Positions 1 through 36,763 of a stretch of 64,000 nt of DNA are shown in pieces (the stretch's first letter is position 1; each line of letters opens with the position of its first letter). The notes beneath the pieces are model-generated. The model searched no databases. It saw only the letters and a program-made list of their open reading frames with translations, and was not told the DNA's origin. The position numbers and the translations under genes are program-made. This stretch comes from a virus (Duplodnaviria > Heunggongvirae > Uroviricota > Caudoviricetes), in the IMG/VR virus record IMGVR_UViG_2721755721_000001. One strand, 5' to 3'.

Positions 1-849
1 TTAGTCTAAATGTTGAATGTCTTTTAAGAAATCCATGGCGCGGATTCTTGATTGACCATTTATCAGGAAAATATAAGATGATAGTTCTCTTTCTGCAGTG
101 TCATTTTTCATTATTTCGTTTTCATTTTTGCGTAACTTAGTTGACTCTATAGTTTTTATCAGACTATTAATTTTTTCATCAAAACCGATAGGTTTTTTTG
201 TTAATGAAATCTTATTTTTTTCAATAGCGCGACGGATCTTTGCTAGAATTTTGTTGCGGATATTTTCAGGGACATTTTCTGAACTTGAGATAAAGTTATG
301 ATTGCCATTTTTTAATGCTTCATTAATTGCATCATAAGGAGATATATATAAATTACTAGGAGTATTATAGGCTGTTTTGGCGTCACCCAGTGTATTGTTC
401 ACAAAATCTGTGCTCTTAGAAATATAAACTACTCCAACTAGCCCCGAAAAATTCTCCCAGAAAACAGATTCAAGATTCTTGTTGTTTGCATTGACCGCTC
501 TTTTGGCAATGGTCTTTTGTTTATTTAGTTCATTTAAAGTTTTTCTTAGTTCAGAATTTATTGAATTTAATTTTTCTTCTGATTCTTTGTATTGTAAATC
601 AAGTTTGGCAATGCTTCCCTCCAATTCTTTTCGTAAGATTTTATTATTCTCTATAAATTTTTGGGAGTTTTCCATTGCAGTTTTTAATTTATTTAATTCA
701 ACTTCTTTTTTTGCAATTTCTTCTGATAAAAGTTCCTTTTGGTAAATTGGTCTTACTGTATAAAAATATCCAAAAATAGCAAATGCCACCAATACAAACT
801 GTGATACATGGCTAACTCGGCTCAAAAAAACATCAACTTTATTTGACAT
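1..849 (-). CDS. hypothetical protein, 282 aa; N-terminal transmembrane helix, long coiled-coil, C-terminal globular region; AT-rich cargo
   Basis: complete ORF (ATG at 847-849, TAA at 1-3); hydrophobic segment VSQFVLVAFAIFGYFYTV; Lys/Glu/Asn-rich heptad-like stretch; no family recognised. Confidence 0.6.
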   Translation of the reverse strand: MSNKVDVFLSRVSHVSQFVLVAFAIFGYFYTVRPIYQKELLSEEIAKKEVELNKLKTAMENSQKFIENNKILRKELEGSIAKLDLQYKESEEKLNSINSELRKTLNELNKQKTIAKRAVNANNKNLESVFWENFSGLVGVVYISKSTDFVNNTLGDAKTAYNTPSNLYISPYDAINEALKNGNHNFISSSENVPENIRNKILAKIRRAIEKNKISLTKKPIGFDEKINSLIKTIESTKLRKNENEIMKNDTAERELSSYIFLINGQSRIRAMDFLKDIQHLD

Positions 850-1210
850 AACGCCTCTATAAGATTCTCTTTTTATCTACAACATTATAATTTTTTAATG
901 AAAAAAATCATCTAAAAATTAGTTCAAAGCAATACGTTCAAACTGATATTGATGCTTAGGAGCTAATCGGTACGTATTGATGGTACAACAGAAAAGAACA
1001 ATAGAAAGCTTGGGGGCTGACGTTGCTACTGGCGCACATACCCATGTCGTACTAAAAGAGTTCATTTGATTTTATAACTATATCAGCCCGTTATTTTTAT
1101 GTTGATGCGAACAGCCCCGCACGCCTGCCCGCTTCGCTTAACAGACTGGTTTTCATGCACCTCATAAATCGTCTCAGAAGCCACCACACAAGGGCTTTCT
1201 CGTCAAAAAT

Positions 1211-1262
1211 GGTGCATAAGGTTCATGCGTTTTCATGCGCTATAGACATGCACTCATGCGCT
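1211..1262. repeat. cluster of TCATGCG / CATGCAC direct repeats at about 10-bp spacing
   Basis: TCATGCG at 1223, 1233, 1254 and CATGCAC at 1247, between ogr-like gene and the 282-aa gene. Confidence 0.35.
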
Positions 1263-1285
1263 CTCAGGCCAGCCAGGGAAAAGGT

Positions 1286-1311
1286 GTTAAAAATCCCGGT
1301 ACTCGACCGGG
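1286..1311 (-). terminator. putative intrinsic terminator after ogr-like gene
   Basis: hairpin CCCGGTCGAGTACCGGG then ATTTTTAA on minus strand, 23 nt past the ogr stop. Confidence 0.45.
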
Positions 1312-1333
1312 ATTACGTGGGCGTTTTTTCTAA

Positions 1334-1615
1334 TCAGACAGGAATCTGCTGACGGCTTGACAGTTTTGACGCGGAGCCATAGCGATTGAGCGTTTGCTGT
1401 TGTTTTACCGGGGGGTGTGATTTGTCTGGTTCCTGTTCATTGCGCCGGGGTTTCATGATTATCTTATCCACACTCTCCAGTGCCGTAAATGTGCAGGAAC
1501 ATTCCAGATTCTGGCACTGATACCACGAGCGTTTAACTGACGGAGCTTCATAGGCTGCTGTTCTGGCGTGTGCAACTGTACCGCATTCCGGACATTTAAG
1601 TGCCATTAAAATCAC
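1334..1615 (-). CDS. ogr: Ogr/Delta-family zinc-finger late transcription activator
   Basis: motifs CPECG...HART...YQCQNLECSCTF...ESV...KP match P2 Ogr / P4 Delta as recalled; true start may be internal Met at 1606. Confidence 0.8.
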   Translation of the reverse strand: MILMALKCPECGTVAHARTAAYEAPSVKRSWYQCQNLECSCTFTALESVDKIIMKPRRNEQEPDKSHPPVKQQQTLNRYGSASKLSSRQQIPV

Positions 1616-2163
1616 TCCTGTATATCGTTAATGTCATTCAGGCGTTGCTGAAAATGCAGATGTTGTGCCGGGGTGTAAGAGTCCTGGCAATCACGAATCA
1701 TCCCGGGGTCAGGTATCAAACCGGATTCATCCAGGATCTCACGATAATCCCCGGCAATTTCAGGCGGTGTTATTGCCAGCTGGCGAACCAGAGCACTGCG
1801 TAATATACGGGACGCAACGTCAACCCCTCCGCGCCCCTTCAGGAACGGAGCCAGTGCAGATGTCAGGGCTGCCCCATTCGCCTGCATAAAATTGCTGAGA
1901 GCGGCTTCTGTGCAGGCCTCCATCAGTAAATGCTGCGCGTAAATGCATTCGCGCGCAGCACAGTTAATTTGCCATTTCAGCACATCCAGACGTTCCCGCA
2001 GTAATTCGAGCTGTCGGGCATAATCTGCTGGTTTTTCTGTGGCAGCGAGGAGAGATGTTATCTGTTGTTCAACGGCTTTTCGGCTCTCACTATGTCCGGC
2101 CCACAGAATACGGGCATTCCGAAAACTGGTAAGTGCCTGGTCAGGCGTGCCTCGGGCCGTCAT
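1612..2163 (-). CDS. hypothetical helical protein, 183 aa (Psu-like by size/position only)
   Basis: ORF translationally coupled between upstream 247-aa ORF and ogr; no motif recognised. Confidence 0.45.
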   Translation of the reverse strand: MTARGTPDQALTSFRNARILWAGHSESRKAVEQQITSLLAATEKPADYARQLELLRERLDVLKWQINCAARECIYAQHLLMEACTEAALSNFMQANGAALTSALAPFLKGRGGVDVASRILRSALVRQLAITPPEIAGDYREILDESGLIPDPGMIRDCQDSYTPAQHLHFQQRLNDINDIQE

Positions 2164-2903
2164 ACTGCTTTCTCCTTCTCAGCGAGTTCCTGACGAACCT
2201 TAATTTTATGCATAGCTGCCGGAGAGAGTTGATTACTGAAATCCAGACGCGCCGCATAATCCGGGGCAACTCCCGCCAGTTTAAACACCGGGTCCTGCTC
2301 AGGCATCGCATCGTTAGCCAGAGCCGGTCTGGTGATATGTTTATGAATAAAGTCTTTCAGCACTGTGTCCGGGTCATTAACTGAATTCACCACACCCACA
2401 ACGGCACTGGCTTCCCGGCCCATTGTGGATTTAAGCAGGCTCAGCGTCTGAATAAGCGCTTTTCCATGCGACTGCATAAAATCCTCCCAGATTTGTTTTG
2501 CGCGAATATCCACAAGAATGTTATGCGCGTGGATATACTTTCCGGCTAATTCTGCAGCTTTCTGCGGCAAAAGTGCATTTTCGCTTTCCTGAGCCGCCAG
2601 CAGCTCATCAAAATCCTCAAGCGTTTCTCGTCCCAGCGCAATTTCCGTGCGCAGTTTTTTCATTTCCTTTGAGACCACGCCCTGACTTTCACGAAACAGC
2701 GTGCGCCACTCCTCATTCAGTGTGTTCGTCGTGGCTTCCATTTCAGCGCGACGCTGGCGGATTGTCGCAATATTATCCGCTGCCGCTTTCTGCTGACGAC
2801 GTGCTTCAAGCCATGCGTTTCTGGCTGTGTTCATGGTTTCCAGTGCCCGCTGCGTTACAGCCGGAAAAGTGGAAAGGTTGTTATTTACTGCGGTATTGTT
2901 CAT
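2160..2903 (-). CDS. hypothetical coiled-coil protein, 247 aa (Sid-like by size/position only)
   Basis: ORF downstream of iteron/promoter region and primase; predicted helical/coiled-coil; no motif recognised. Confidence 0.45.
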   Translation of the reverse strand: MNNTAVNNNLSTFPAVTQRALETMNTARNAWLEARRQQKAAADNIATIRQRRAEMEATTNTLNEEWRTLFRESQGVVSKEMKKLRTEIALGRETLEDFDELLAAQESENALLPQKAAELAGKYIHAHNILVDIRAKQIWEDFMQSHGKALIQTLSLLKSTMGREASAVVGVVNSVNDPDTVLKDFIHKHITRPALANDAMPEQDPVFKLAGVAPDYAARLDFSNQLSPAAMHKIKVRQELAEKEKAV

Positions 2904-2941
2904 GACTTCTCCTGTCGGGTTGGTTCGTTACGTCAATTGTG

Positions 2942-3269
2942 TCGTGGCTGACACAAGCACACTATCGGTGCTCAGTGTGTGGTGGCTGGCACAACGGGCG
3001 CTTGCGGTTATTCAGACGTGGCTATGAAAGCCAGCCAGATAAAAATGCCCTCTGTTTCAGTCTGCTTTATGTCCCTGATGCGGTGGAACAGGTGAAACAT
3101 GTGTTACAGCTTTGTTTTATAAGGCATTTATATACACTGCACCGGTGGAACATCGCGGGTAACAAGGTGAAACAGCGGATTGGCTGGCGTTACATCTGTT
3201 CCACCTCACTATTTCAGAAGGTGGAACAGGTTCAGCCCTGTAAAATACGGTTGTTCCACCTGTTTCACC
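2942..3269. repeat. iteron cluster resembling P4 ori/crr-type repeats
   Basis: GGTGGAACAGGTGAAACA at 3083-3100; GGTGGAACA at 3144 and 3220; GGTGAAACA at 3166; inverted copies TGTTCCACC at 3197 and 3252 and TGTTTCACC at 3261; GTGGCTGNCACAA at 2942 and 2981. Confidence 0.55.
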
Positions 3270-3303
3270 TGTTACCCTTAATAAATAAGACTCACGCAAA
3301 GCC

Positions 3304-5976
3304 TTAACCCGGCACCTCGCTGTTGAAGACATAGAGCCTGCGGGGATTCATCTCTGGCGGGCGAATGGTTGTCTGGAGTTTGCCATCAGTGGAGGGCAGC
3401 AGGTATCCACGATCTGCGCACAGACGCGCCACCTTGCGCGGGTCAAATCCCCTGCAGATTTCTTTCCAGCCGGACGGCATGACATAGAACGTAGTGACAG
3501 CTTCCGTGCCCTGCGCGGTACTGCCTTTCTCCACCCTTCGCCAGCCCACCATATTGCCGGGGCGGTTGCGCTCGTCATACCAGTCTGCAAAGCGGCTGTA
3601 CTGATTCGCGGTAAAGAAACTGCGAACCTGCTCCAGTGCGGCGATATCTTCCTGATTGGCGGTGTGCCCGCGATCTTTCAGCCATGCGTTCAGGCAGACG
3701 CGGGTTGCCCGCAGTGCTTCACCCTCAGGCCAGCCGGTGATACCCAGACGGGTTGCCAGTTCACCTGCCATCGCCACCAGTGCAAAGCGGTTCACAGCCC
3801 GGCCCACCTGATTGCCTGCATCTTTCGGAGTCAGGGCGGCAGCATATTCCTTCATCAGCGATTTTGCCTGTGCCGTTAGTCCGTTAAGATCAGCGGTCAG
3901 TGCTTTCAGCCACTCCCGGAACGGCGAACCGTAGTAGCAGGACGTGGCCCATTCAAGATGCTCTGCCAGAGCCTTGCCGCTGTCGAAGCCGTGCAGCTCC
4001 TCAAAAACGCCAAACTTCCCGGAATCGCTGGGGATCTGGATCATCCTGACTTCCATCCCGGCAAAAGTACGCTCACCGGCCTTTGCCGCATGTTCGGTCA
4101 GAGACAATTCGCCAGTTGAAAAGAACAACAGGCGCCACTGCTTACGGGTACGCAGCTCACCGTCCGTACCGGCACGGCCCTTGCCCTGACCGTTTGCCAG
4201 CATGTAGGCGATATTGCCTGCCTCGCGTCCGTCAACTTCCCGGATCTCATCAAGCATCATGGCGGCATCGTTGCGGCGGCTGGCGCATCCCTCCAGTGCG
4301 TTGCCGGTGGCCCGCCATGTCTGCCAGTAGTCAGGCCCGCCGCAGACGGAGGTTGCTGCTTTCATGGTGGTGGTCTTACCGTCTGTCGATTCCCCTTTGA
4401 GGTGGTAGCCGCCGCCGTCCATACCAACCAGCCGTAACAGTGGTGCAGCAAAGGCCAGGCTGACAGCAAATGCCACGCGGGAGTTGCCGGTACAGTAGCG
4501 GGATACATGCTCCCGCCATTCCTCTGTTGTGCCCGACACGCGGAAATCACGCCCCTGCACGGAAGTGGTCTGGAGAATGACACCCTCTGCACCTTCACCG
4601 CTGACCTCATCCTGCAGGACGTAAACCTGACCATGCCAGCCAGTACGACTGACGCAGGTCACGCGGCGTTCCGGTTTACACAGTGAGATATATTCCATCA
4701 GGCGTGCGCGTGCCTCACCGGTGGTGCTGATATAAGACAGCCCGTTAACCAGCAGTACCCGGCGCAGTTCCTCACCACTGCCGCTCAGCATTTCCATCGG
4801 CATCGCCCAGCGGCGACACTCACCCCACGTATCTTCCCATTCCAGCAGTCGTCCGAAGTTACCGCCATCGGCATCGCAGGTGATTGCCGTCACGCGCAGC
4901 GGGCTGCATATTTTGACGTTCTGGATCTCCGTCTCACCGTTGCGCTGTACCTGCTTTTCATACCAGAGATATTCCTGGGTAAGACGGAACCCGTGCGGCA
5001 GTTGCGTGCGGCTTTCCCCGCAGAGTACCAGACCGTTGCGAAAGGCTTCACGGGCACGGGTAATACCGTGCTCCCGATGAAAGTCATTCCAGTCAGCCTT
5101 AATCTCTTCTGGTGGCAGCGTCATCCAGCCGCCAACAGCTTTTGCCGCCCGTTCAGCAAAGGCTCTGCCGGGATTCTCACCCCCGTCCTGAAAATCGTTA
5201 TCACCGGCGATGATAATTTTTACCTCAGGCCAGCGTGCCCGCAGCGACTGCGCCACATTGGGCAGGTTGCCCGCAGATATGGCAGCCACTACGCATCCGG
5301 CAGTGAGCTGGCTTACCGTCAGCGCCGTAGCGTAACCTTCGGTAATCACCACCTGTATCGGTGGTTCAGACGGTAACGGGCTGAGCGACACAAACGCGCC
5401 TTTCATCGTGCTGCCGGGCAGTATGCTTTTTTCACCCGTCGGGGCGATAAGCTGTGCACCGGTCACGGCTCCGGTGTTGGTCGTGAGTGGTAACAGCAGG
5501 GAACCGGCAGGAAAATCCTTACCGCTGATATGCTGTACGCTTCCGGTCAGAGAGGCCGGGTATCCGGCGAACCCTTTTCCTGTCAGATAGGCGCTTTCTC
5601 CCGTGTGGCTCTCTTTCATCAGCGCCGCCACGGTAAGACCCATGTCGCGTTTAGGGGCTTTTTGTCTGGCAGGCTTAACAGGCAGTTCCTGCATATCCGG
5701 CACATTAAGCACCTGCGCCACCTCCTGCGCAGCCTTTCTGACGTTGTAACCGGTTACGAGCTTAACCAGATCCAGACCGTCACCATTGCCACACTGGCTG
5801 CAGATCCACGTCCCGCGCCCGTCAAGGTCATCAAGGCGAAAACGATCCTTGCCCCCACATTTCGGGCAGGGACCGTGCCTGCCGTTTTCAGGTACATCAA
5901 TACGCAGCATCTGCAGAATAACGGGCCATTTCCCCCGTGCGGCGGCTGAAACCTGCGTAACCGTCTGTATTGTCAT
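3304..5976 (-). CDS. DNA primase/helicase, P4 alpha-like
   Basis: 890 aa; N-terminal zinc motif CPKCGG...CSQCG; acidic primase-like cluster IIIAGDNDFQDGGENPG; P-loop GESTDGKTT in C-terminal half. Confidence 0.85.
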   Translation of the reverse strand: MTIQTVTQVSAAARGKWPVILQMLRIDVPENGRHGPCPKCGGKDRFRLDDLDGRGTWICSQCGNGDGLDLVKLVTGYNVRKAAQEVAQVLNVPDMQELPVKPARQKAPKRDMGLTVAALMKESHTGESAYLTGKGFAGYPASLTGSVQHISGKDFPAGSLLLPLTTNTGAVTGAQLIAPTGEKSILPGSTMKGAFVSLSPLPSEPPIQVVITEGYATALTVSQLTAGCVVAAISAGNLPNVAQSLRARWPEVKIIIAGDNDFQDGGENPGRAFAERAAKAVGGWMTLPPEEIKADWNDFHREHGITRAREAFRNGLVLCGESRTQLPHGFRLTQEYLWYEKQVQRNGETEIQNVKICSPLRVTAITCDADGGNFGRLLEWEDTWGECRRWAMPMEMLSGSGEELRRVLLVNGLSYISTTGEARARLMEYISLCKPERRVTCVSRTGWHGQVYVLQDEVSGEGAEGVILQTTSVQGRDFRVSGTTEEWREHVSRYCTGNSRVAFAVSLAFAAPLLRLVGMDGGGYHLKGESTDGKTTTMKAATSVCGGPDYWQTWRATGNALEGCASRRNDAAMMLDEIREVDGREAGNIAYMLANGQGKGRAGTDGELRTRKQWRLLFFSTGELSLTEHAAKAGERTFAGMEVRMIQIPSDSGKFGVFEELHGFDSGKALAEHLEWATSCYYGSPFREWLKALTADLNGLTAQAKSLMKEYAAALTPKDAGNQVGRAVNRFALVAMAGELATRLGITGWPEGEALRATRVCLNAWLKDRGHTANQEDIAALEQVRSFFTANQYSRFADWYDERNRPGNMVGWRRVEKGSTAQGTEAVTTFYVMPSGWKEICRGFDPRKVARLCADRGYLLPSTDGKLQTTIRPPEMNPRRLYVFNSEVPG

Positions 5977-6356
5977 ACTTCCCCCTCATACAACGTCACA
6001 CCGGTACTGCAGAAGTCATCAAATGCCGCCGGAAGCGTGCGGTACATCTCCGCCATCACTTCACAGCCGCGCGCGGTCAGTACCGGCGGCGCGGTCAGCA
6101 GTGACGGCTCCAGCATGTCAGTCAGCAGTGCCAGCGCGGCAGCGGCGCCCTGCACTTCGCCGTACTCGTTAATCAGTACGCACTCGATATGCAGCGCAAT
6201 GGCCATTTCAATACGCTCCACCGTCAGGCTGTGCGGACCATACTGATCACTGCCAGTTTCGTTCAGCATTTTCTGCCGCCATGCTGAAGCAATAGCCCGC
6301 CGGTAAAGCGCGGTGGTCATTTCTACCGGGAAAATGGAAACCTGCGGCTGGTTCAT
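5973..6356 (-). CDS. hypothetical protein, 127 aa
   Basis: ORF overlapping primase start by 4 nt in satellite early operon. Confidence 0.45.
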   Translation of the reverse strand: MNQPQVSIFPVEMTTALYRRAIASAWRQKMLNETGSDQYGPHSLTVERIEMAIALHIECVLINEYGEVQGAAAALALLTDMLEPSLLTAPPVLTARGCEVMAEMYRTLPAAFDDFCSTGVTLYEGEV

Positions 6357-6637
6357 CTGGCACCTCCTTCAATCAGTGCGCAGCTGTGTGCAATATCCGT
6401 CAAATCTGCCAGCAGGTACTCCATCAGCGCGGCGACACCAGGCGCACAGCCTGCGTCCAGTGCTCCGGCCTGAGACGGGTATTCAGAAAAGAGAAGCTGG
6501 AGCATGTCGCAGGCATTTCTTGCGCGGGTCAGCTTTCCGAAACTGTCCTCTGACAACCCATAGGCAAAAGCACCGGTATTGTGTTTTTCAGGCAAAGTGT
6601 GGCCCTGAGCACCGTTGTGCCCGTTTGAAATATTCAT
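6353..6637 (-). CDS. hypothetical protein, 94 aa
   Basis: ORF translationally coupled within the same operon. Confidence 0.4.
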   Translation of the reverse strand: MNISNGHNGAQGHTLPEKHNTGAFAYGLSEDSFGKLTRARNACDMLQLLFSEYPSQAGALDAGCAPGVAALMEYLLADLTDIAHSCALIEGGAR

Positions 6638-6668
6638 CGTGGATTACTCCGTTTTCAGCGGTATTTTG

Positions 6669-7058
6669 TCAGAGAAACTTTGAATAGTGACCGTCGTCAG
6701 GCTCAGCAGAACGCCGTATGCTACGCTCCCGCCAGCGGATAAATAGCACAGACGGATGCAGTGTCAGCGGGCCGGAACCACTACCGCCAGCAGGAGCTGG
6801 TGCAGGCTTCAAGAGCGGTACATCAAACAGGCGCGTATACCGCTGTTCAAACCATGCCAGAGGGCAGGAAGAAAGCTTGTTGTCGCTGTCATGACGTATC
6901 AGCACTTCACAGCTGAATTCAGGATTAACCAGCGCCACAGAGGGCGAGGCTTCTATTAATCGGATAATCGTGACCGTCCAGCCACGTTCATGCTGCCAGC
7001 GTTCGCCGGGGTGCGGATAATTACGCATGTTCACCTCCGCAGGGAATGCGCCCGGCAA
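6669..7058 (-). CDS. hypothetical protein, 129 aa (start uncertain)
   Basis: ORF in satellite early operon; alternative internal start MRNYPHP. Confidence 0.4.
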   Translation of the reverse strand: MPGAFPAEVNMRNYPHPGERWQHERGWTVTIIRLIEASPSVALVNPEFSCEVLIRHDSDNKLSSCPLAWFEQRYTRLFDVPLLKPAPAPAGGSGSGPLTLHPSVLFIRWRERSIRRSAEPDDGHYSKFL

Positions 7059-7251
7059 AGCTCAGTACATAGTCCGGGGCAAGTCTGCGCCGCGCTGATC
7101 GTTCGTTATCTGCGGTGATCCTTAACATCACAGGACGGGCATTGCGTTGACTGCGGTTGATCGCCGCAAATAACCAGGTACACTTCTGTTTAGCCATCTT
7201 CGTTACCTCATATAACGTGCTGGTCAGACGCCTCGGTGCTGCTGCAAACAC
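7021..7251 (-). CDS. hypothetical small basic protein (likely starts at MAKQKC, position 7197)
   Basis: ORF immediately downstream of the palindromic operator region. Confidence 0.35.
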   Translation of the reverse strand: MFAAAPRRLTSTLYEVTKMAKQKCTWLFAAINRSQRNARPVMLRITADNERSARRRLAPDYVLSFAGRIPCGGEHA

Positions 7252-7279
7252 TCCGGGGCGTTGCTATTTTGTTTTTCTG

Positions 7280-7300
7280 TGTGTAATGTGTCATTACACA
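7280..7300. promoter_or_regulatory. perfect 9-3-9 palindrome TGTGTAATG-TGT-CATTACACA, putative operator
   Basis: located 14 bp upstream of the plus-strand RHH-like ORF and upstream of the minus-strand primase operon; ATTACA...TGTAAT half-sites recur at 7308-7326. Confidence 0.5.
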
Positions 7301-7313
7301 TAAATACATTACA

Positions 7314-7508
7314 ATGGGTGTAATTGACGTGTCAACACACAAAAATGAAAGACGTGGGAATCCGCCATTCCAGTTCCGACTTGACCCTGAACTGCGTGAA
7401 CTGATGGAACAAGCACAACAGCAGGATGGCGATGAATCGCTAGCGGCTTGGATCAAGCGCATTCTACGCAAAGAGTTACAAAGCCGAGGTTTAGAACCAA
7501 AGAATTGA
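7314..7508 (+). CDS. putative ribbon-helix-helix DNA-binding protein, 64 aa
   Basis: FQFRLDPELRELMEQA...SLAAWIKRILRKEL fits strand-helix-helix pattern; only plus-strand gene in the module; followed by hairpin GGGGAG-loop-CTCCCC at 7517-7540. Confidence 0.45.
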   Translation: MGVIDVSTHKNERRGNPPFQFRLDPELRELMEQAQQQDGDESLAAWIKRILRKELQSRGLEPKN

Positions 7509-7557
7509 TTAATACGTTGGGGAGGCTTTTTTCTCCCCAGCTTTGTTAATATTGTCA

Positions 7558-7773
7558 TTACACTACTTCCTCCAATCCTGCTGATTGAGCTTTAACCCAC
7601 TGCCTAATTTCTTGTGCATCGTAAACAGATACCCGTTTTGAAATGCGTATAGATTTGGGAAATTCAGGATTGTTCTTTTCCCAGCGCCAGAGAGTAACCG
7701 TACTTATTTGCAAAAAGTCAGCAGTAGCTCGTGGGCGGGCATGTCCAGTGATAGGATAAGTTTTTAATGTCAT
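7558..7773 (-). CDS. alpA: AlpA-family helix-turn-helix regulator
   Basis: 71 aa with AlpA-like pattern (LQISTVTLWRWEKNNPEFP...VYDAQEIRQW). Confidence 0.7.
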   Translation of the reverse strand: MTLKTYPITGHARPRATADFLQISTVTLWRWEKNNPEFPKSIRISKRVSVYDAQEIRQWVKAQSAGLEEVV

Positions 7774-7875
7774 GAAATTACCTGCCGTATTATGTAATGA
7801 ACACGGCAGATACTATGGGGATATCAAAATGCTGTGAAGGTAGTGTAATCAACTCTACCTGTAGATTGTTTCAGT

Positions 7876-8757
7876 CTACCCCTTTTGTTTTAATCCCGCA
7901 TGATTAACCGCTAATCGTAATTTTCTTAAGATTTCTTGTTCATTAGTGATAAATATTGGAGGTAGCTCTCCTAAATGTTTAATTATGGCGTTAGTCCACT
8001 TTTCAGGACTTATCTCTTTTCTTTCACCACGACATTCGCTTGGGTATTTTGCTAATATATATATGGCTGCATTTAATAACCCCTCCCTATTTTTTGCATG
8101 ATGCTCAGCAGTGTTATTTAATCGCTTGGGGATTTTAGGTTCAGATGAAATTCTTTTCGTAAGTAAACTTGGCATAGGAATTCCAGTTTTTACTGATTTC
8201 CATATTAACTCTAAATCTCTTCGCATGATAAGAAGATCTTCAAATGGAATCTTAATTACCTTATTTCCTTCATATGAGGCCGTTGCCATCAAAACATTAT
8301 CTCGTATTTTTACCGGTTTAAGCCTGAATTCATAATCTGGATCTATAGCTAATCCATTTTTTATGTCACTTATCATATCATCGGCGTACCAAATACCACA
8401 GGCAAATCCTATAATTTGAAGCCCATTTTCAAAATGTTCAAAGGAATCATCTTTAAGGTCATACCATATTGTTGAAAATTCCATCTCTAGTGATTGATTA
8501 GTTAATACGGGATGAATTAAGTCAATTTCCATTTTCTGATTTTTATTGAGGAAATTAACATTAAATCTAACTGCAAGTCCATCCGCCTTGAATGCGATAT
8601 TAAAAGCGCCTATTTCGTATAGATGTAATAAATCATCAATCTCGCATTCTAATAGTCTTGAAGCGCGTTCAAATGAACAATATTCTAATGGTGGTATTTT
8701 TTTGTCAATCCATAGATTTCCTAAGAATATAGTTTCATTCTCTGTTGAATGCTGCAT
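7876..8757 (-). CDS. hypothetical protein, 293 aa; AT-rich cargo between int and alpA
   Basis: complete ORF starting 30 bp after the int stop; GC well below flanking genes; no family recognised. Confidence 0.6.
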   Translation of the reverse strand: MQHSTENETIFLGNLWIDKKIPPLEYCSFERASRLLECEIDDLLHLYEIGAFNIAFKADGLAVRFNVNFLNKNQKMEIDLIHPVLTNQSLEMEFSTIWYDLKDDSFEHFENGLQIIGFACGIWYADDMISDIKNGLAIDPDYEFRLKPVKIRDNVLMATASYEGNKVIKIPFEDLLIMRRDLELIWKSVKTGIPMPSLLTKRISSEPKIPKRLNNTAEHHAKNREGLLNAAIYILAKYPSECRGERKEISPEKWTNAIIKHLGELPPIFITNEQEILRKLRLAVNHAGLKQKG

Positions 8758-8787
8758 TATGACCTCTGTTTTAAATTATAAGAGTAT

Positions 8788-10122
8788 TTAATTGATAATG
8801 TTAATACCTGATAAGTCATAAGGAGCATGGAATTCGTCCTTATTTAGTTCCAGATAATTAGACCACCATTGCATCATTCTGCGGCGTTCCTGCATGTGCT
8901 GCGCAAGATGCACATATGCTGCCCGCACTTCGTTTCTTTCTTGGTGACTCATCTGCCGTTCAACTGCATCGCGTGACCAGAGTCCTGATTCGGTCAGTGC
9001 AGAGCAGGCCATCGCCCTGAACCCATGCAAGCAAACATCAGTTTGAGTGTCGTAACCCATCGTTCGCAGTGCTTTATTAACTGTGTTTTCGCTCATCGGT
9101 TTATATGGGTTGCTGTCACCGGGAAAAACCAGCAGATATTCACCACTGATTTTCCTTATATCCTCCAGTACCCCGATAGCCTGACTAGATAGCGGGACAT
9201 AATGAGCAGCCCCCATCTTTGCACCCCGATCTGAGAATTTAACCCCTGCGATCTCTTCACGTTGTCCTGGTATCGTCCATAGCCCATTTTCAATGTCGAT
9301 CTCCTCCCATCTGGCATGTCGTAGTTCGCTGGATCGCACAAAAGTGTGCAGGGAAAAGAGAACTGCTAGGCGAGTCAATGGTCTTCCCGTGTAACTTCTC
9401 GTTTTCGCTAACAGTTCAGGTAAACGTTCGAGAGGTAGTGCGGGGCGATGTCGTACTTTGGGGGCCGTAATTGCACCTTTTAGATCGTGGGCAGGGTTGT
9501 AATCGACAATTCCACGTTGCACGGCATAACGGAAGATGCTCGTCATAGTGGTTTTTACACGGCTCGTTGTGGCACCAATTCCTTTCTCAGTCATCTCAAC
9601 CAGCATCGGCATCAAGTCACGGGTTTTGAGCGTATCGATAGGCTTTGAACCGATGGCAGGAAAGAGGTGGTTTTCCATTTCTCGGAGAATTTTTTTACGG
9701 GTGATCTCTTTCCACTCAGGATGCCCCATCGTTCCACTATGCCACTCTCTGGCAACACTCTCGAACGTGGGGGAAATTGGGTCTTCCTTTTTGGGTTTCT
9801 TTGCTTCGCGAGGATCACGACCATCGGCTAGTAGTTGCCTGGCTTCATCACGCCGTTTCCGCGCTGTTGCAAGTGAGACATCTGGGTAGACCCCTAATGC
9901 CAATGTCACTTGTTTTCCATCAAAACGATAATTCATACGCCAGTATTTTCCACCAGTCTTTCGTACCAGTAGATACAAACTCCCTCCATCGGTAAGTTTG
10001 TAATCATTGGTCTTCGGCTTGGCGTTTTCTATCTGTTTGGGGGAAAGCACATTAATGGCCATATCTGTACTCATTTTGGTAAATTGATGGTATCTGCATA
10101 TCGAACTGGGGAATACCATCAC
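8788..10122 (-). CDS. int: tyrosine integrase, P4-type
   Basis: 444 aa; N-terminal arm-binding-like region (LTDGGSLYLLVRKTGGKYWRMNYRFDGK); C-terminal catalytic region with HGFRAMACSAL and late Tyr. Confidence 0.9.
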   Translation of the reverse strand: MMVFPSSICRYHQFTKMSTDMAINVLSPKQIENAKPKTNDYKLTDGGSLYLLVRKTGGKYWRMNYRFDGKQVTLALGVYPDVSLATARKRRDEARQLLADGRDPREAKKPKKEDPISPTFESVAREWHSGTMGHPEWKEITRKKILREMENHLFPAIGSKPIDTLKTRDLMPMLVEMTEKGIGATTSRVKTTMTSIFRYAVQRGIVDYNPAHDLKGAITAPKVRHRPALPLERLPELLAKTRSYTGRPLTRLAVLFSLHTFVRSSELRHARWEEIDIENGLWTIPGQREEIAGVKFSDRGAKMGAAHYVPLSSQAIGVLEDIRKISGEYLLVFPGDSNPYKPMSENTVNKALRTMGYDTQTDVCLHGFRAMACSALTESGLWSRDAVERQMSHQERNEVRAAYVHLAQHMQERRRMMQWWSNYLELNKDEFHAPYDLSGINIIN

Positions 10123-10942: not shown

Positions 10943-11317
10943 TCAAAGGGGAGGCTCTGGTAGCGGCATCCAGTGTGACGGTTTCCACGACGCACCAGGA
11001 ATTATCCACCCATCATTAGCGTCAGGATGCCCCGGGATGTAAGTCGCCCATTTCATTCGCCAGTCACCTTTCCTGTCAAACTCCCTGGCAACAAGAACGG
11101 CTGTTTTGGTATCCGGCATTCGCTCACTACAGCTTATCCAACCATCAGGAGTTACCGGAGAGTTGCCGGGTTCTTTAATGTGCAAGCGAGGCTCACCATC
11201 TTTTGGCTCAGGCCACTGGCGCTCCATGTTGATCTTCAATTTATCTTCCATAGCAGCGGTAATTTCAGCATCGCTGATGCCAGCACGGCGCTGTGCATCC
11301 CACAACAGGAAATGCAT
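10943..11317 (-). CDS. DUF551-like phage protein
   Basis: Trp-rich C-terminal pattern as recalled for DUF551; in frame with the upstream ORF across a TAG. Confidence 0.5.
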   Translation of the reverse strand: MHFLLWDAQRRAGISDAEITAAMEDKLKINMERQWPEPKDGEPRLHIKEPGNSPVTPDGWISCSERMPDTKTAVLVAREFDRKGDWRMKWATYIPGHPDANDGWIIPGASWKPSHWMPLPEPPL

Positions 11318-12339: not shown

Positions 12340-12747
12340 TCACTCTCCTTTGATGCGAATGCCAGTAGCGCGGATTGCATCGATGACTTCAGAAACTTTG
12401 TATGCCATTACCGTTTGGTAATCATCGTGAAAATCTGTTCGATGAAGCATGCTGCTACGTTCCGGGAGCAGTATTTCCCGCGCTTCCAGTTCTGCAATGC
12501 GCTTTTTTGCTGCTTCCAGTTCATCCAGTAATTCCAGCACGGTAGCCGGATTAGCCTTGGCAACAAAATCCCGGACTGGCTTACAATCAATCTCCGCAAT
12601 GGGTTGATACGATGTGTAGCCATGCTGTCTTGTATAACTACCGTGACGAATAACGAAAAAATCACCATTTATTTTTTTAGCCTGCCACTTATCTTCACCG
12701 GCTTTCTCTGCCGCTTCACGCAGTGCCTGAGAGTTAATTTCGCTCAC
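12340..12747 (-). CDS. Ead/Ea22-like protein
   Basis: PATVLELLDELEAAKKRIAELEA coiled-coil motif typical of Ead/Ea22-like proteins as recalled. Confidence 0.5.
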   Translation of the reverse strand: MSEINSQALREAAEKAGEDKWQAKKINGDFFVIRHGSYTRQHGYTSYQPIAEIDCKPVRDFVAKANPATVLELLDELEAAKKRIAELEAREILLPERSSMLHRTDFHDDYQTVMAYKVSEVIDAIRATGIRIKGE

Positions 12748-15887: not shown

Positions 15888-16256
15888 TCAGGCGGCCTTG
15901 ATAGTCATATCATCTGAATCAAATATTCCTGATGTATCGATATCGGTAATTCTTATTCCTTCGCTACCATCCATTGGAGGCCATCCTTCCTGACCATTTC
16001 CATCATTCCAGTCGAACTCACACACAACACCATATGCATTTAAGTCGCTTGAAATTGCTATAAGCAGAGCATGTTGCGCCAGCATGATTAATACAGCATT
16101 TAATACAGAGCCGTGTTTATTGAGTCGGTATTCAGAGTCTGACCAGAAATTATTAATCTGGTGAAGTTTTTCCTCTGTCATTACGTCATGGTCGATTTCA
16201 ATTTCTATTGATGCTTTCCAGTCGTAATCAATGATGTATTTTTTGATGTTTGACAT
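15888..16256 (-). CDS. ea10: Ea10-like early protein
   Basis: 122 aa, same size and position as lambda Ea10. Confidence 0.7.
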   Translation of the reverse strand: MSNIKKYIIDYDWKASIEIEIDHDVMTEEKLHQINNFWSDSEYRLNKHGSVLNAVLIMLAQHALLIAISSDLNAYGVVCEFDWNDGNGQEGWPPMDGSEGIRITDIDTSGIFDSDDMTIKAA

Positions 16257-16436
16257 CTGTTCATATCCTCATAGATAAAAAATCGCCCTCACACTGGAGG
16301 GCAAAGAAGATTTCCAATAATCAGAACAAGTCGGCTCCTGTTTAGTTACGAGCGACATTGCTCCGTGTATTCACTCGTTGGAATGAATACACAGTGCTGT
16401 GTTTATTCTGTTGTTTATGCCAAAAATAAAGGCCGA

Positions 16437-17060
16437 CTATGCGGCCTCGGAAGGAAGTCCAATCATCTTATTCAAATCTTCTACCCGTAAAGCAGGAAGT
16501 GCTGTACTTGCTTTATCTGCTTCTTTTGGTAGCAATTCTTTGCTTTCAGGCCAAACTTCAATAAGTCGCTTAACTGTTGTTACTGAGTTCAAAGCAGCCC
16601 ATACATTTGATTCGATATCCTTTTTCCTGGCTTCAAGTTTTTGTTGCAATGCGCAGATTTCATCAAACCTTTTTGTTATTTCGTGTTCTGCGTTAAACAT
16701 GCATTTATCTCTGTTAGGAGTAGGGAGCAATATATCTTCGCCGTTACCGTCTTTTCCATATGAATACCAGCCAACCCTTCTGCCAGATACAGTCAGATAA
16801 ATTGAAGTAGAACGAACATCGTATGAGTAAAATGAACATCCCATCTTTTCAAGTTCTTCACTTATAGCCATTAATCTGGATGATAACTGATCCACTTCTT
16901 CAGTTTTCTTTTTACCGCCAAACGCAACAACTCTGGCGTCAAGTGCAAGCCGGTTCTTTAACTTTGTTACTTCTTCAAGTTCGGTGAAAACCCCGGACTT
17001 AATTAAAGCGTTACGAGCGATATCCTCTTTCATTCTCGTAGTTAAGCGGATTGATGACAT
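16437..17060 (-). CDS. hypothetical protein, about 207 aa, in the ral/sieB slot downstream of N
   Basis: ORF; ATG at 17058-17060 with RBS GAGAGG is preferred over the TTG at 17120; no TM segment; no family recognised. Confidence 0.55.
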   Translation of the reverse strand: MSSIRLTTRMKEDIARNALIKSGVFTELEEVTKLKNRLALDARVVAFGGKKKTEEVDQLSSRLMAISEELEKMGCSFYSYDVRSTSIYLTVSGRRVGWYSYGKDGNGEDILLPTPNRDKCMFNAEHEITKRFDEICALQQKLEARKKDIESNVWAALNSVTTVKRLIEVWPESKELLPKEADKASTALPALRVEDLNKMIGLPSEAA

Positions 17061-17121
17061 ATTAATTCCTCTCAAATAAGTGGTTTGCTGCCTGATTTCA
17101 TTTTCTGGTGACCAACACAAG

Positions 17122-17505
17122 TCATCTTGCTGTCAGTTGTTTTGATTTCCGGTAGCCTGCCGCGTAAATGGCTACGTTTGGAAGACATACACCAGTTTCT
17201 GGTTGCTTATGTCCAAACTCATTCGCGTACACAATGGCCGCTCGCTCCAGATTGCGTCTGTATTCTTTCTGTTGCCAGATCACGTCCTGTGCCATGAACT
17301 TAATTGGCTTAGCGTCTTCTATGCGCTCAGGCGTTTCGTGAGTACCTTTAGCCTGAATCTGCGCTCTGCTTAGAGTAGGGCGGTGTAATACTTCTGAACT
17401 TATTGCTTCTTCGCGGGCCAGTACGCCGTTAGCTAATGCCTTTGCCTTTAAACGCTCACGACGACGAGAACGTGAATTGCCTTTGAACTGAGTTCTGCGT
17501 GTCAT
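17122..17505 (-). CDS. N: N-like antitermination protein
   Basis: Arg-rich N-terminal motif GNSRSRRRERLKAKA resembling the lambda N ARM; first gene leftward of the pL region. Confidence 0.7.
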   Translation of the reverse strand: MTRRTQFKGNSRSRRRERLKAKALANGVLAREEAISSEVLHRPTLSRAQIQAKGTHETPERIEDAKPIKFMAQDVIWQQKEYRRNLERAAIVYANEFGHKQPETGVCLPNVAIYAAGYRKSKQLTAR

Positions 17506-18008: not shown

Positions 18009-19034
18009 TTATGGGCGAGTGATGGTTGATGCGTTTCCGTTTTCTATTACACCTGCTCGTATCGTGTAGCTTCCCAAGATTTTTACTGTCCTGTTTTCTT
18101 TCATTGCATCAAACAGTATGGCGATCTCGTCTTTATCATCTATGAACGACGTGTCCACCGAAACAGGGAAACTGTCTTCACTAGATGGTTCGCGGCAGCT
18201 TAGGGTTATCTTTTCCGCAGTACGCTTGATTCCATCAATGACTAATTCAAGGTTTCTTTCTTCTTTTTTTGCTTTTTCGATAGGGTTCTTGATTAGTTCG
18301 TGGATTTCTTTGTTAGACAGTTCAACTGTGCTTGCGCCTGATATGACAATTTTGTCAGCATCAGACGCGCCTTTTAATACCCCTGTATACGCTTTTGCAG
18401 TATGCTCTTGAATCCCTTCGGCGCGCTCTACTGCATCTATGCCCGCTTTAGCTCTAATCGCCTCAAGCATTCCGTCCCTTAATATCGTCATGCGCTCGTT
18501 TTCTGATTTAATCTTGGCTTCTTCGAGCTTTGTTTCTTCTTGCTTGACTTCTACTTCGGCTTTTTTCTCTAAGTATGATGTACCAACCCATGCACCGCCT
18601 ATAACGGTGACAGCAAACAAGAAGCATAATGTTTTTTGGCTAGGACTCATACCGTGTGTTACCTTCTCAAAGGCTTTACCGAATGCTTCAAAAAGCTTTG
18701 TTAATGCAGCAAGTATATCAGTACAACCTTCATTAATGGTAAAGATGATCTCTGCTTCCTCTTTATCTTTACCAGTTAACCTTTGAAGGTTGTCAGTTTT
18801 ATATTTTATTAGTGTGAAAACTTTATAAATTTCAGTCTGAAATTCGCATAAACCCTGAGCTAGAGGAGATGGAAGCGTTCCGTTGTAGCGAGAAGGATCA
18901 CCATAAATCTTAAAATTCACATTATTGAAGAGGTCTAACTTGATCCTGTCGATAGTGATCTCTTCGCCACCATCTAACCTTGCAAACAAAGATTCAATGT
19001 CGTCCAGACTTGAAACATTAATAATATCTTTCAT
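18009..19034 (-). CDS. hypothetical protein, 341 aa, one central TM helix; occupies the rexAB position
   Basis: complete AT-rich ORF between cI and pL; hydrophobic TLCFLFAVTVIGGAWVGTSYL; TATAAT (minus, 19065-19070) upstream; no family recognised. Confidence 0.6.
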   Translation of the reverse strand: MKDIINVSSLDDIESLFARLDGGEEITIDRIKLDLFNNVNFKIYGDPSRYNGTLPSPLAQGLCEFQTEIYKVFTLIKYKTDNLQRLTGKDKEEAEIIFTINEGCTDILAALTKLFEAFGKAFEKVTHGMSPSQKTLCFLFAVTVIGGAWVGTSYLEKKAEVEVKQEETKLEEAKIKSENERMTILRDGMLEAIRAKAGIDAVERAEGIQEHTAKAYTGVLKGASDADKIVISGASTVELSNKEIHELIKNPIEKAKKEERNLELVIDGIKRTAEKITLSCREPSSEDSFPVSVDTSFIDDKDEIAILFDAMKENRTVKILGSYTIRAGVIENGNASTITRP

Positions 19035-22592: not shown

Positions 22593-23033
22593 ATGAAAAA
22601 ACTAACCTTTGAAATTCGATCTCCAGCACATCAGCAAAACGCTATTCACGCAGTACAGCAAATCCTTCCAGACCCAACCAAACCAATCGTAGTAACCATT
22701 CAGGAACGCAACCGCAGCTTAGACCAAAACAGGAAGCTATGGGCCTGCTTAGGTGACGTCTCTCGTCAGGTTGAATGGCATGGTCGCTGGCTGGATGCAG
22801 AAAGCTGGAAGTGTGTGTTTACCGCAGCATTAAAGCAGCAGGATGTTGTTCCTAACCTTGCCGGGAATGGCTTTGTGGTAATAGGCCAGTCAACCAGCAG
22901 GATGCGTGTAGGCGAATTTGCGGAGCTATTAGAGCTTATACAGGCATTCGGTACAGAGCGTGGCGTTAAGTGGTCAGACGAAGCGAGACTGGCTCTGGAG
23001 TGGAAAGCGAGATGGGGAGATCGGGCTGCATGA
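22593..23033 (+). CDS. ninB: NinB recombination protein
   Basis: 146 aa from MKKLTFEIRSPAHQQNAIHAV, matches lambda NinB. Confidence 0.9.
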   Translation: MKKLTFEIRSPAHQQNAIHAVQQILPDPTKPIVVTIQERNRSLDQNRKLWACLGDVSRQVEWHGRWLDAESWKCVFTAALKQQDVVPNLAGNGFVVIGQSTSRMRVGEFAELLELIQAFGTERGVKWSDEARLALEWKARWGDRAA

Positions 23034-23557
23034 CTATCAAATCAAATACGCCAGCACACGACAAGGACTGCTGGCAAACGCCGCTTTGGCTTTTTGATGC
23101 ACTGGATATTGAGTTTGGATTCTGGCTGGATTCGGCAGCGAGCGACAAAAATGCTCTGTGTGCTCACTGGCTAACTGAGGCCGACGACGCGCTCAATTCT
23201 GAGTGGGTAAGCCACGGTGCAATCTGGAATAACCCACCGTACAGCAATATCAGGCCGTGGGTGGAAAAAGCCGCTGAGCAGTGCATACAACAGCGACAGA
23301 CGGTAGTTATGCTTGTGCCAGAGGATATGTCAGTCGGATGGTTCAGCAAGGCTCTGGAGAGTGTCGACGAAGTTCGCATTATCACTGATGGACGGATTAA
23401 TTTTATCGAACCATCGACAGGGCTGGAGAAGAAGGGAAACAGCAAAGGCTCCATGCTGCTGATTTGGCGACCGTTCATCAGTCCTCGACGGATGTTTACT
23501 ACCGTATCCAAAGCGGCATTGATGGCGATCGGGCAGGGCGTCAGGAGGGCGGCATGA
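23030..23557 (+). CDS. phage DNA N6-adenine methyltransferase (Dam-like)
   Basis: NPPY motif (IWNNPPYSN); ATG at 23030 overlaps ninB stop. Confidence 0.7.
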
Positions 23558-31474: not shown

Positions 31475-31819
31475 ATGAAGAAAAAATACGAACTGGTTGT
31501 TAAAGGGATAAATAATTACCCGGATAAGATTACTGTTACTGTGGCACTGGAAATTGGTGGGTATCCGTCACTGTTGTTGCCAAATGTGGCGATTAGTCTT
31601 GACCGTACTGAAGGTGCCACGCTGGAGTTTTACGAAGCGGAGGCGAAAAAGCAGGCGAAGCAGTTTTTCATGGATGTTGCTGCCGGGTTATGTGAAGGGG
31701 ATGGTCCGTTGCCGGAAAAGCGGCCCATCATTTTAGAGGCGCAGGATGTGTTGATAACCTACAGAGGAAAACTACCGGGAATAATTACTGGTTCTCTGAA
31801 GACTCCACCGCTGGCCTGA
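31475..31819 (+). CDS. DUF1327-like lysis-cassette protein
   Basis: 114-aa ORF between holin and endolysin; family assignment from memory. Confidence 0.45.
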   Translation: MKKKYELVVKGINNYPDKITVTVALEIGGYPSLLLPNVAISLDRTEGATLEFYEAEAKKQAKQFFMDVAAGLCEGDGPLPEKRPIILEAQDVLITYRGKLPGIITGSLKTPPLA

Positions 31820-31869
31820 AGACTTAACATATCCAGGGATTTGAAATCGATAAACCCTGATAAATATCC

Positions 31870-32403
31870 ATGAACACCAAAATCAAATACGGCCTGTCGG
31901 CTGCCGTTCTGGCGCTGATTGCCGCAGGTGCGCCTGCGCCTGAAATCCTCGACCAGTTTCTGGATGAAAAGGAAGGTAACCACACCACGGCATACCGTGA
32001 TGGCGCGGGTATCTGGACCATCTGCCGCGGTGCCATCCTGGTGGATGGTAAACCTGTCGTTCCGGGCATGAAGTTGTCGAAGGAAAAATGCGACCAGGTT
32101 AACGCCATTGAACGTGATAAGGCGCTGGCATGGGTGGAGAAAAACATCAAAGTGCCACTGACCGAACCCCAGAAAGCGGGGATCGCGTCATTCTGTCCGT
32201 ACAACATTGGTCCCGGTAAATGTTTCCCGTCGACGTTTTACAGACGAATTAATGCAGGTGATCGCAGGGGAGCGTGTGAGGCGATTCGCTGGTGGATTAA
32301 GGACGGTGGCAGAGACTGCCGTATTCGCTCAAATAACTGTTACGGTCAGGTATCCCGTCGCGACCAGGAGAGTGCGCTGGCGTGCTGGGGAATTGACAGA
32401 TAA
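31870..32403 (+). CDS. R: SAR endolysin (T4-lysozyme-like, signal-anchor-release type)
   Basis: 177 aa; N-terminal weakly hydrophobic SAR segment YGLSAAVLALIAAGAPA; lysozyme-like body. Confidence 0.8.
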   Translation: MNTKIKYGLSAAVLALIAAGAPAPEILDQFLDEKEGNHTTAYRDGAGIWTICRGAILVDGKPVVPGMKLSKEKCDQVNAIERDKALAWVEKNIKVPLTEPQKAGIASFCPYNIGPGKCFPSTFYRRINAGDRRGACEAIRWWIKDGGRDCRIRSNNCYGQVSRRDQESALACWGIDR

Positions 32404-32701
32404 GCAGAATATTTTGCTGAAAAATGCGGTTTGCTCACACGGACGGATAACACGAAATCCTGAGAACTGACAAAAACTAAGTGAATAAAAGTAAAAACCC
32501 CATTTGTTGGCTGCAAGCGGGGTTTTGTGTTTCCTGACTCCGGAAAAGTCAAAGGAGAAAGTGTGTTTGATTTTAGCAAACTGATTCGGGAGATTCGAGT
32601 GATGGCTGAAAAATTATCCACCTGGAAGTTCATCCTTATCTGGCTGGTGTTTGTGATTATGGCCTCCGGTTATTTCATCGGTCAGATACGCTGGTGGTGA
32701 A

Positions 32702-33196
32702 ATGAACCGCGTACTGTGCGTGGTCATCATTGCCCTGCTGGTGGCCTGTGGTGCGCTTAGTCTGGGGCTGAATCATTACCGTGATAACGCCATAACCTAC
32801 AAAGAGCAGCGCGATAAAAAAGTCAGTGAGCTGGAGCTGGCAAATGCAACCATTACTGATATGCAGCAGCGCCAGCGTGATGTTGCTGCACTTGATGCCA
32901 GATACTCGAGGGAATTAGCCGATGCGAGAGCTGAAAATGAAACTCTTCGCGCTGACGTTGCCGCTGGTCACCGCAGCCTGCGGATCAACGCCACCTGTCC
33001 AGGTCCCGTGCGTGAAGCCACCGGCACCGCCCGCGTGGATAATGCAACCGGCCCCCAACTGGCAGACACCGTTACACGGGATTATTTCACCCTCAGAGAG
33101 CGGCTGATGACGATGCAGAAGCAACTGGAAGGGGCACAGGACTATATCCGCACTCAGTGTACTAAGCAGGCTTTTTATTATCCGGAGGATGTATGA
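32702..33196 (+). CDS. Rz: Rz i-spanin
   Basis: 164 aa; N-terminal TM, coiled-coil periplasmic domain; Rz1 embedded in +1 frame. Confidence 0.8.
   Translation: MNRVLCVVIIALLVACGALSLGLNHYRDNAITYKEQRDKKVSELELANATITDMQQRQRDVAALDARYSRELADARAENETLRADVAAGHRSLRINATCPGPVREATGTARVDNATGPQLADTVTRDYFTLRERLMTMQKQLEGAQDYIRTQCTKQAFYYPEDV
32937..33107 (+). CDS. Rz1: Rz1 o-spanin lipoprotein embedded in Rz
   Basis: [15 protein letters not shown] lipoprotein signal; Pro-rich mature part; nested in Rz. Confidence 0.7.
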   Translation: MKLFALTLPLVTAACGSTPPVQVPCVKPPAPPAWIMQPAPNWQTPLHGIISPSESG

Positions 33197-34801: not shown

Positions 34802-34820
34802 CCCGTTGTAAAGTGAGGAT

Positions 34821-36713: not shown

Positions 36714-36763
36714 AGACTTAACATATCCAGGGATTTGAAATCGATAAACCCTGATAAATATCC

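Follow-up and report, generated by a model that had tools for sequence, protein, structure and literature searches.

A low-GC mosaic cassette encoding an Nmad5-family protein stands in place of ral, orf28, and sieB beside N in a lambdoid phage

The family name Nmad5 goes back, as cited by later papers, to a founding paper by Iyer et al. in 2013, and the label presumably reflects guilt by association with modification genes in a single phage clade. In YuA-like phages, an Nmad5 gene lies within a thymidine hypermodification cluster, between the genes for a 5-hmdU DNA kinase (HMUDK) and a dUMP hydroxymethylase, and ADDT/aGPT-Pplase also flanks it in YuA/M6-like phages; the cluster of these phages has been described (PMC9476957). 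In vitro, gp54, gp51, gp53, and gp52 were enough to rebuild the 5-NedU pathway of phage M6, and the Nmad5 protein was not among them (PMC8989533). A link to antiphage defence comes from Dhillonvirus, in which escape from the Tmn system was mapped to a substitution in Nmad5, K216E in SM_A8, equivalent to K296E in SM_S22; reverting the change restored Tmn sensitivity, and introducing it conferred escape (PMC11846954). Deletion of nmad5 in Dhillonvirus gave viable phage that did not escape Tmn, and the gene was not clonable and apparently toxic (PMC11846954). Tmn is also triggered directly by the early protein RIIB of T2, according to a 2026 preprint (PMC13001434). Phage lambda is without an Nmad5 gene altogether; between N and ea10 it carries ral, orf28, and sieB, the last annotated on the strand opposite to N (NC_001416).

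Here we describe an Nmad5-family gene located next to N in a lambdoid phage, within a 64,000-nucleotide stretch of IMG/VR virus record IMGVR_UViG_2721755721_000001 (the window). A preliminary description of the window had reported an open reading frame (ORF) without recognisable motif at this site. That statement was wrong: the ORF almost certainly encodes a full-length, single-domain Nmad5-family protein (Pfam PF18757, InterPro IPR040835, PHROG 1965). Residues 4 to 203 of 207 match the Pfam Nmad5 profile from end to end (positions 1 to 206 of 206; 242.1 bits against a cut-off of 27; E=7.6e-72), this is the sole Pfam match, and the protein also matches PHROG 1965 at E=2.1e-81. Searches of NCBIfam with the protein gave no match, and neither did searches of the PADLOC-DB defence HMMs at E<=0.1. 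A 100%-identical protein is present in IMG/VR, homologues bear the NCBI name “Nmad5 family putative nucleotide modification protein,” and a gene so named occurs in 211 of 5,426 complete Escherichia coli genomes at 90 to 96.5% nucleotide identity. The Nmad5 gene beside N is an already catalogued kind of gene, not a new one; PGAP annotates it automatically, and sequenced model lambdoid phages carry it. The preliminary description would have been refuted by a lambdoid early protein that is conserved and whose function is known; this one is conserved and catalogued, but our search of the literature on carrier phages and on the family identifiers found nothing on function.

The family is large and spread over many phage groups. 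When 1.84 billion representative proteins were searched with a profile of the family, 2,293 clusters (50% identity) passed E<=1e-3 and 146 passed E<=1e-30. Of the best 150 representatives, nearly all are about 190 to 215 amino acids long, and PF18757 is the only Pfam domain among the 120 matches listed. Sequenced phages that carry Nmad5 include lambdoid and Stx phages, Vibrio phages, N4-like Schitoviridae, YuA/M6-like Pseudomonas phages, Bordetella phages, and Dhillonvirus. When bacterial genome contigs were searched, the five loci recovered were all Enterobacterales prophages, in a sample that is thin outside E. coli.

The coding sequence lies on the minus strand at 16437..17060, from an ATG at 17060 to a TAG stop at 16439..16437, as the ORF list, the Pfam and PHROG matches, and a conserved N terminus all indicate. 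A longer form of the ORF begins with a TTG (16437..17120, minus; 227 amino acids), and the 17060 ATG is internal to it. We read a ribosome-binding site (RBS), GAGAGG, at 17068..17073 (minus), with the Shine-Dalgarno core GAGG at 17071..17068, 7 nt 5' of the 17060 ATG. Homologues, some with only about 30% identity, share the N-terminal M-x-R-L-T start of the 207-amino-acid form, and homologue starts down to about 25 to 30% identity all fall within one to four residues of the conserved R-L-T. The 207-amino-acid extent is also the one annotated in PhiR12_1 and mEp235, and 18 of 80 related loci lose DNA homology at 17080-17099, a boundary that leaves the RBS in and the TTG out. The preliminary description had favored the 17060 ATG, and this evidence bears it out as the start; N-terminal conservation and the mosaic boundaries together rule out the TTG at 17120. 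The same description gave a 2-bp gap between N and the TTG, which is in fact a single base (17121); from the N stop to the 17060 ATG the distance is 61 nt.

Differences among 59 distinct alleles fall mostly on the third codon position (302 at the first position, 363 at the second, and 888 at the third; 1,553 in total). This bias, together with the 2,293 family clusters, establishes that the ORF is a real gene under coding constraint. Opposite it, on the plus strand, lies an antisense ORF of 133 amino acids (16399..16800) that is probably spurious. The Nmad5 protein has a pI of 7.6 and a net charge of +0.6 at pH 7, compared with a family median pI of 7.0. It contains no transmembrane segment, as had been stated before (the maximal Kyte-Doolittle mean over 19 residues is 0.61).

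We then compared the position of the gene with that of its lambda counterparts. Directly upstream is the gene for the N antiterminator (17122..17505, minus), a non-lambda allele recognized by Pfam N_peptide (E=2e-15) and PHROG 271 and annotated as N in PhiR12_1. The downstream neighbour is ea10 (DUF2528; 15888..16256, minus), whose product is 100% identical to lambda Ea10; in most related loci ea10 falls outside the cassette and is an independent module. In an alignment with lambda, kil, cIII, and ea10 are near-perfectly identical, and identity runs on to window position 16434, 3 nt past the Nmad5 stop codon; beyond this point the sequences are unrelated. The preliminary description's placement of a non-lambda gene in the ral/sieB slot after N is therefore exact, since the Nmad5 cassette stands where lambda has ral, orf28, and sieB. 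The likeness to Ral and SieB ends with position, that is, with the N-ea10 interval and the pL operon. Lambda Ral is 66 amino acids long, compared to 207 for the Nmad5 protein, which resembles neither Ral nor SieB in sequence or predicted structure. Unlike lambda sieB, the Nmad5 gene is on the same (minus) strand as N, its product is soluble, and a consensus scan found no promoter-like site of its own.

The expression signals around the gene are compact. The 61-nt spacer between N and Nmad5 (17061..17121, minus) is unstructured (fold, -6.7 kcal/mol; z=+1.34), and a pattern scan found no terminator-like site within it. The first terminator-like site 3' of N is a hairpin with the sequence GAGGCCG-CATAGT-CGGCCTT followed by a T-tract (16420..16448, minus; pattern scan), which overlaps the Nmad5 stop codon. 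The hairpin itself (16448..16429) folds at -13.2 kcal/mol, and its 3' arm and T-tract consist of lambda-identical DNA (from 16434). A second terminator-like hairpin (16283..16304, minus; -13.0 kcal/mol) lies in lambda-identical DNA upstream of ea10. Both calls come from consensus-type scans, with modest z-scores of -1.6 and -2.2, and a scan for the sigma-70 consensus found no promoter-like site upstream of the Nmad5 gene on the minus strand. Because there is no terminator between N and Nmad5, and the first hairpin comes only after the Nmad5 stop, we infer that the two genes are co-transcribed from pL; on this arrangement Nmad5 would be an immediate-early gene, probably expressed before antitermination is needed.

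We examined 80 IMG/VR loci that encode a protein 93 to 100% identical to the Nmad5 of the window. The N allele of the window was found in 29 of the 80, and 25 share no other probed neighbour with the window. On the left, homology ends at 16270-16279 in 46 loci, just past the second hairpin, and at 16390-16409 in 17 loci, just past the first. The right boundary is at 17120-17129 in 47 loci, at the N stop codon, and at 17080-17099 in the 18 loci already mentioned, just 5' of the RBS, which these loci keep. Clustering of the boundaries at four sites implies a minimal unit made up of the RBS, the ORF, and the hairpin. GC content is 39.9% here, compared to 51.7% for the window. The Nmad5 gene sits on a small mosaic cassette, low in GC, that consists of the RBS, the ORF, and the hairpin terminator.

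Close orthologues of equal length, 93 to 96% identical in protein sequence, occur in mEp235 (mEp235_037), HK542/HK244, Kapi1 (Kapi1_018), PhiR12_1 (XSB41589), and Stx1a phages. They occupy the same slot in lambdoid and P22-like genomes, with N or N-Nun upstream and cIII/kil and a recombination module downstream, and they share the cassette and its boundaries with the window; the carriers differ from it in N allele, immunity region, and recombination system. Both mEp235 and Kapi1 place Nmad5 after the repressor gene, N, and a Nun-like gene and ahead of cIII, kil, and the recombination module. Beside the slot, lambdoid carriers have recombination modules of three types: Red, Rad52/SSB/Exo, and RecT. 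The records of these orthologues (mEp235, HK542, Kapi1, PhiR12_1, and Stx1a) all read “hypothetical protein,” and Kapi1_018 carries a CDD Nmad5 tag.

Other features of the window were noted as well. A P4-like satellite (1..10122, minus) abuts the lambdoid early-left arm and comprises Psu-family ORFs (1612..2163 and 2160..2903), a P4 alpha-type primase with Zn-ribbon, Toprim, and DUF927 domains (3304..5976), a DUF5375 gene (5973..6356), and a P4-type integrase (8788..10122). We saw no lambdoid integrase between 10122 and the Ea22-like gene (12340..12747). In the rexAB slot, between N and cI, is an ORF of 341 amino acids (18009..19034, minus; GC, 40.4%) that matches PHROG 6191 and gave no Pfam, PADLOC, or NCBIfam match; its PhiR12_1 equivalent is annotated “T2SS GspM containing protein,” and we see in it a candidate for an accessory or defence gene expressed in lysogens. 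A direct duplication (31529..33200 and 36423..38280) covers ORFs of 127 and 177 amino acids, with 99% identity over 300 nt at a spacing of 4,894 and a second block of 83% identity at a spacing of 5,083. The ORFs that it brackets (225, 115, and 523 amino acids; 33777..36392) could be an inserted mobile element.

The family name is based on a genomic association with genes that modify nucleotides or DNA bases. The YuA/M6-like homologues (YuA gp15; SN1_019) belong to the same family, with 44% identity over the C-terminal 87 residues, and sit amid thymidine hypermodification genes, whereas none stands beside the gene of the window. None adjoins Nmad5 in the lambdoid carriers examined (PhiR12_1, mEp235, and Kapi1) either, and no modification enzyme was found among 104 neighbour proteins from 15 further distinct loci. 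Within 4 kb, these 15 loci hold CI-type repressors (9), SSB (4), DUF3799/PD-(D/E)XK exonucleases (4), DUF2800 (3), RecT (3), Enc34 ssDNA-binding proteins (3), N (2), AAA_24 (2), and PolA (2). Individual contexts in virulent phages place Nmad5 between ThyX and primase; beside AAA_24, MazG, and RuvC; beside an SNF2 helicase and a ParB-like protein; beside a helicase and PolA, with PolA downstream; or beside a DUF2800 nuclease, an Enc34 ssDNA-binding protein, and PolA. In some phages the gene stands alone, moron-like, among head genes. Modification genes flank Nmad5 only in YuA/M6-like phages; elsewhere the gene is found mostly in early replication/recombination modules. The window encodes a Dam-type N6-adenine methyltransferase in the nin region (22970..23557), 6 kb from Nmad5 and in another operon, and an ORF at 10943..11317 in which DUF551 is joined to the C-terminal half of a dATP/dGTP pyrophosphohydrolase domain. 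Neither stands out among lambdoid accessory genes, and neither is linked to the Nmad5 cassette.

The motifs of the family, followed in alignments down to about 25% identity, are all present in the protein of the window: R5-L6-T7, G48-G49, T162 to P178, and L196 to P203. The best-conserved motif is T-x-K-[K/R]-L-x3-W-P-E-x2-E-L-L-P, and a conserved C-terminal tail reads L-P-A-x-x-V-x-x-L-N-x-x-I-G-L-P. Invariant across the family are L166, W170, P171, and N197, and near-invariant are R5, I14, G48, G93, T162, E172, P178, G201, and P203; a wider list of invariant and near-invariant positions adds A18, R43, E175, L176, P189, and L196. As judged from the alignments, this set does not resemble a catalytic constellation, and E172 with basic residues could form an unrecognised active site.

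We modelled the protein twice with AlphaFold2, from 21 and from 71 sequences, and the models agree (mean pLDDT, 85.4 and 88.2; pTM, 0.70 and 0.76), with residues 1 to 180 above 85. The model is a helical bundle to which a small beta-sheet is added; its elements are an N-terminal strand, three long helices (residues 8 to 72), a small beta-meander (86 to 121), a long helix (127 to 158), and three short helices (163 to 183). The tail (183 to 207) has a pLDDT below 50 in both runs of the monomer. The most conserved stretches of the protein are residues 161 to 180 and 191 to 203. Foldseek searches of BFVD matched only other Nmad5 proteins (top TM scores, 0.57 to 0.73). The check by remote homology and structure prediction that the preliminary description had suggested thus yielded the Nmad5 family and a confident fold but no functional neighbour: no structural neighbour of known function was found for the model, and neither an enzyme fold nor a DNA-binding fold was detected in it. 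A full-length Nmad5 profile had no match among PDB sequences. A ribbon-helix-helix N terminus was considered and rejected, as a profile of 41 N termini gave noise against PDB sequences (best E=0.57, not a ribbon-helix-helix protein). The helical model without enzyme fold and the conserved yet low-pLDDT tail point to a soluble, non-enzymatic protein that would act by binding or by forming oligomers, and the model suggests that the tail probably becomes ordered only on a partner or in an oligomer.

The lysine changed in Tmn escape aligns with R165 in the window motif T162-V-K-R165-L-I-E-V-W-P-E. This alignment places the site where a gain-of-function change alters defence sensing on what is predicted to be the most conserved surface of the family. 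Dhillonvirus Nmad5 (SM_A8 XEC67403; SM_S22 CDS0006; Yamashita et al. 2025, PMC11846954) resembles the protein of the window in family, C-terminal motifs, and dispensability. It differs in having only about 25% identity, a length of 254 amino acids with an insertion of about 50 residues, and a gene that lies on the opposite strand amid head genes of a virulent siphovirus; the Tmn phenotype was obtained there only, from a gain-of-function allele. The deposited SM_S22 Nmad5 coding sequence (PP627283, 2006..3010) has 334 amino acids, including an unconserved N-terminal extension of 80 residues that overlaps a head scaffolding gene on the other strand. From sequence comparison, the true start is probably M-R-L-T, as in SM_A8 and Bas83, which gives 254 amino acids and makes K296 equal to K216. 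Two further connections to defence were examined and rejected: hhalign gave a probability of 0.8% for homology of Nmad5 to T4/T2 RIIB, and the “NMAD” domain in a validated defence system of DefensePredictor is Nmad2, not Nmad5.

Nmad5 is dispensable. In 48 Stx2a phage records, an IS3-family element breaks the gene some 36 residues in, premature stops occur in 2 of 61 alleles, the Dhillonvirus deletion is viable, and lambda does without the gene. In Stx2a phage LC616058 (1238..2451; also in LC616031), the IS3-family element encodes an OrfA of 108 and an OrfB of 296 amino acids and leaves a C-terminal Nmad5 ORF of 152 amino acids.

What, then, does the protein do? An Nmad5 that modified nucleotides or DNA bases, or served as an obligatory cofactor in doing so, would account for the homologue inside the YuA/M6-like thymidine hypermodification cluster (PMC9476957), and some N4-like phages put Nmad5 beside ThyX or MazG; the window phage also has the Dam methyltransferase in its nin region. 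However, modification genes adjoin Nmad5 in neither the window, nor the lambdoid carriers, nor the 15 other loci, the Dam gene is 6 kb off in another operon, the models and alignments offer neither an enzyme fold nor a catalytic constellation, and the M6 5-NedU pathway was reconstituted without the protein (PMC8989533). We regard this role as improbable. The exact occupancy of the lambda ral-orf28-sieB interval raises a different idea, namely, that Nmad5 does the work of what it displaced, alleviating type I restriction as Ral does or excluding superinfecting phages as SieB does. The low GC content and mosaic distribution are accessory traits that fit it, and the predicted early expression would suit anti-restriction. 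The protein nevertheless has no sequence relation to Ral or SieB, Nmad5 being its sole Pfam match and PADLOC giving none; with a pI of 7.6, it is not an acidic DNA mimic of the Ocr/ArdA type; and it has neither the transmembrane segment nor the upstream promoter-like site for expression in a lysogen that a SieB-like protein would call for. That the family is widespread in virulent Vibrio, Pseudomonas, Bordetella, and N4-like phages argues against an exclusion role expressed in lysogens. A Ral- or SieB-like role is therefore just as unlikely as one in modification, and a broader role in counter-defence is possible.

It is harder to set aside a direct part in phage replication or recombination, for example, as an organiser or mediator on ssDNA, SSB, or the replisome. 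SSB, exonuclease, DUF2800, RecT, Enc34, AAA_24, and PolA are among the neighbours at the 15 further loci; virulent phages place Nmad5 by ThyX/primase, by AAA_24/MazG/RuvC, by helicases, and by PolA; and the lambdoid gene heads an operon with gam/bet/exo, Rad52/SSB/exo, or RecT. Where the gene is placed, in replication/recombination modules, is just as well explained by such a direct part in phage DNA metabolism. Yet near-identical lambdoid phages may or may not carry the gene, no more than 211 of 5,426 complete E. coli genomes have it, lambda replicates and recombines without it, it is IS-interrupted in Stx2a phages and deletable in Dhillonvirus, no partner gene is conserved across its contexts, and no DNA-binding fold was detected. 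We consider this role doubtful, and host takeover or counter-defence somewhat more likely.

We prefer to explain Nmad5 as an early accessory protein that travels on a mosaic cassette and binds rather than catalyses, a reading whose chances we judge to be evenly balanced when it is taken as a whole. Its parts differ in strength. Given the models, that the protein works by binding rather than by catalysis is the better supported, and rather likely; that it is a dispensable accessory for host takeover or counter-defence is a tentative proposal. Under this explanation, the cassette swaps for lambda sieB-orf28-ral between N and ea10, and Nmad5 would be made immediate-early on the pL transcript with N, ahead of N-dependent read-through. 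The protein may then dock on a conserved partner that takes part in the DNA replication, recombination, or nucleotide metabolism of the infected cell, and docking may alter how defences such as Tmn perceive the infection. We further speculate, with less confidence, that the family is misnamed and represents a new group of non-enzymatic early effectors of Proteobacteria phages, for counter-defence or host takeover. In that case the invariant TxK[KR]L-WPE surface and the disordered LN..IGLP tail would bind a conserved host or phage component and thereby tune sensors of the Tmn NTPase type.

Nmad5 is thus a large phage family (more than 2,000 clusters) with a genetic link to Tmn defence and a name that implies a modification role not seen in most of its contexts. 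In most of them, that of the window included, the gene heads an early operon by itself and has a non-enzymatic look. The lambdoid cassette is a clean swap for ral/sieB beside N, and isogenic relatives without the gene exist; for these reasons it is the easiest place to learn what the family does. If the binding and counter-defence reading is true, the lambdoid cassette would provide a genetically tractable model.
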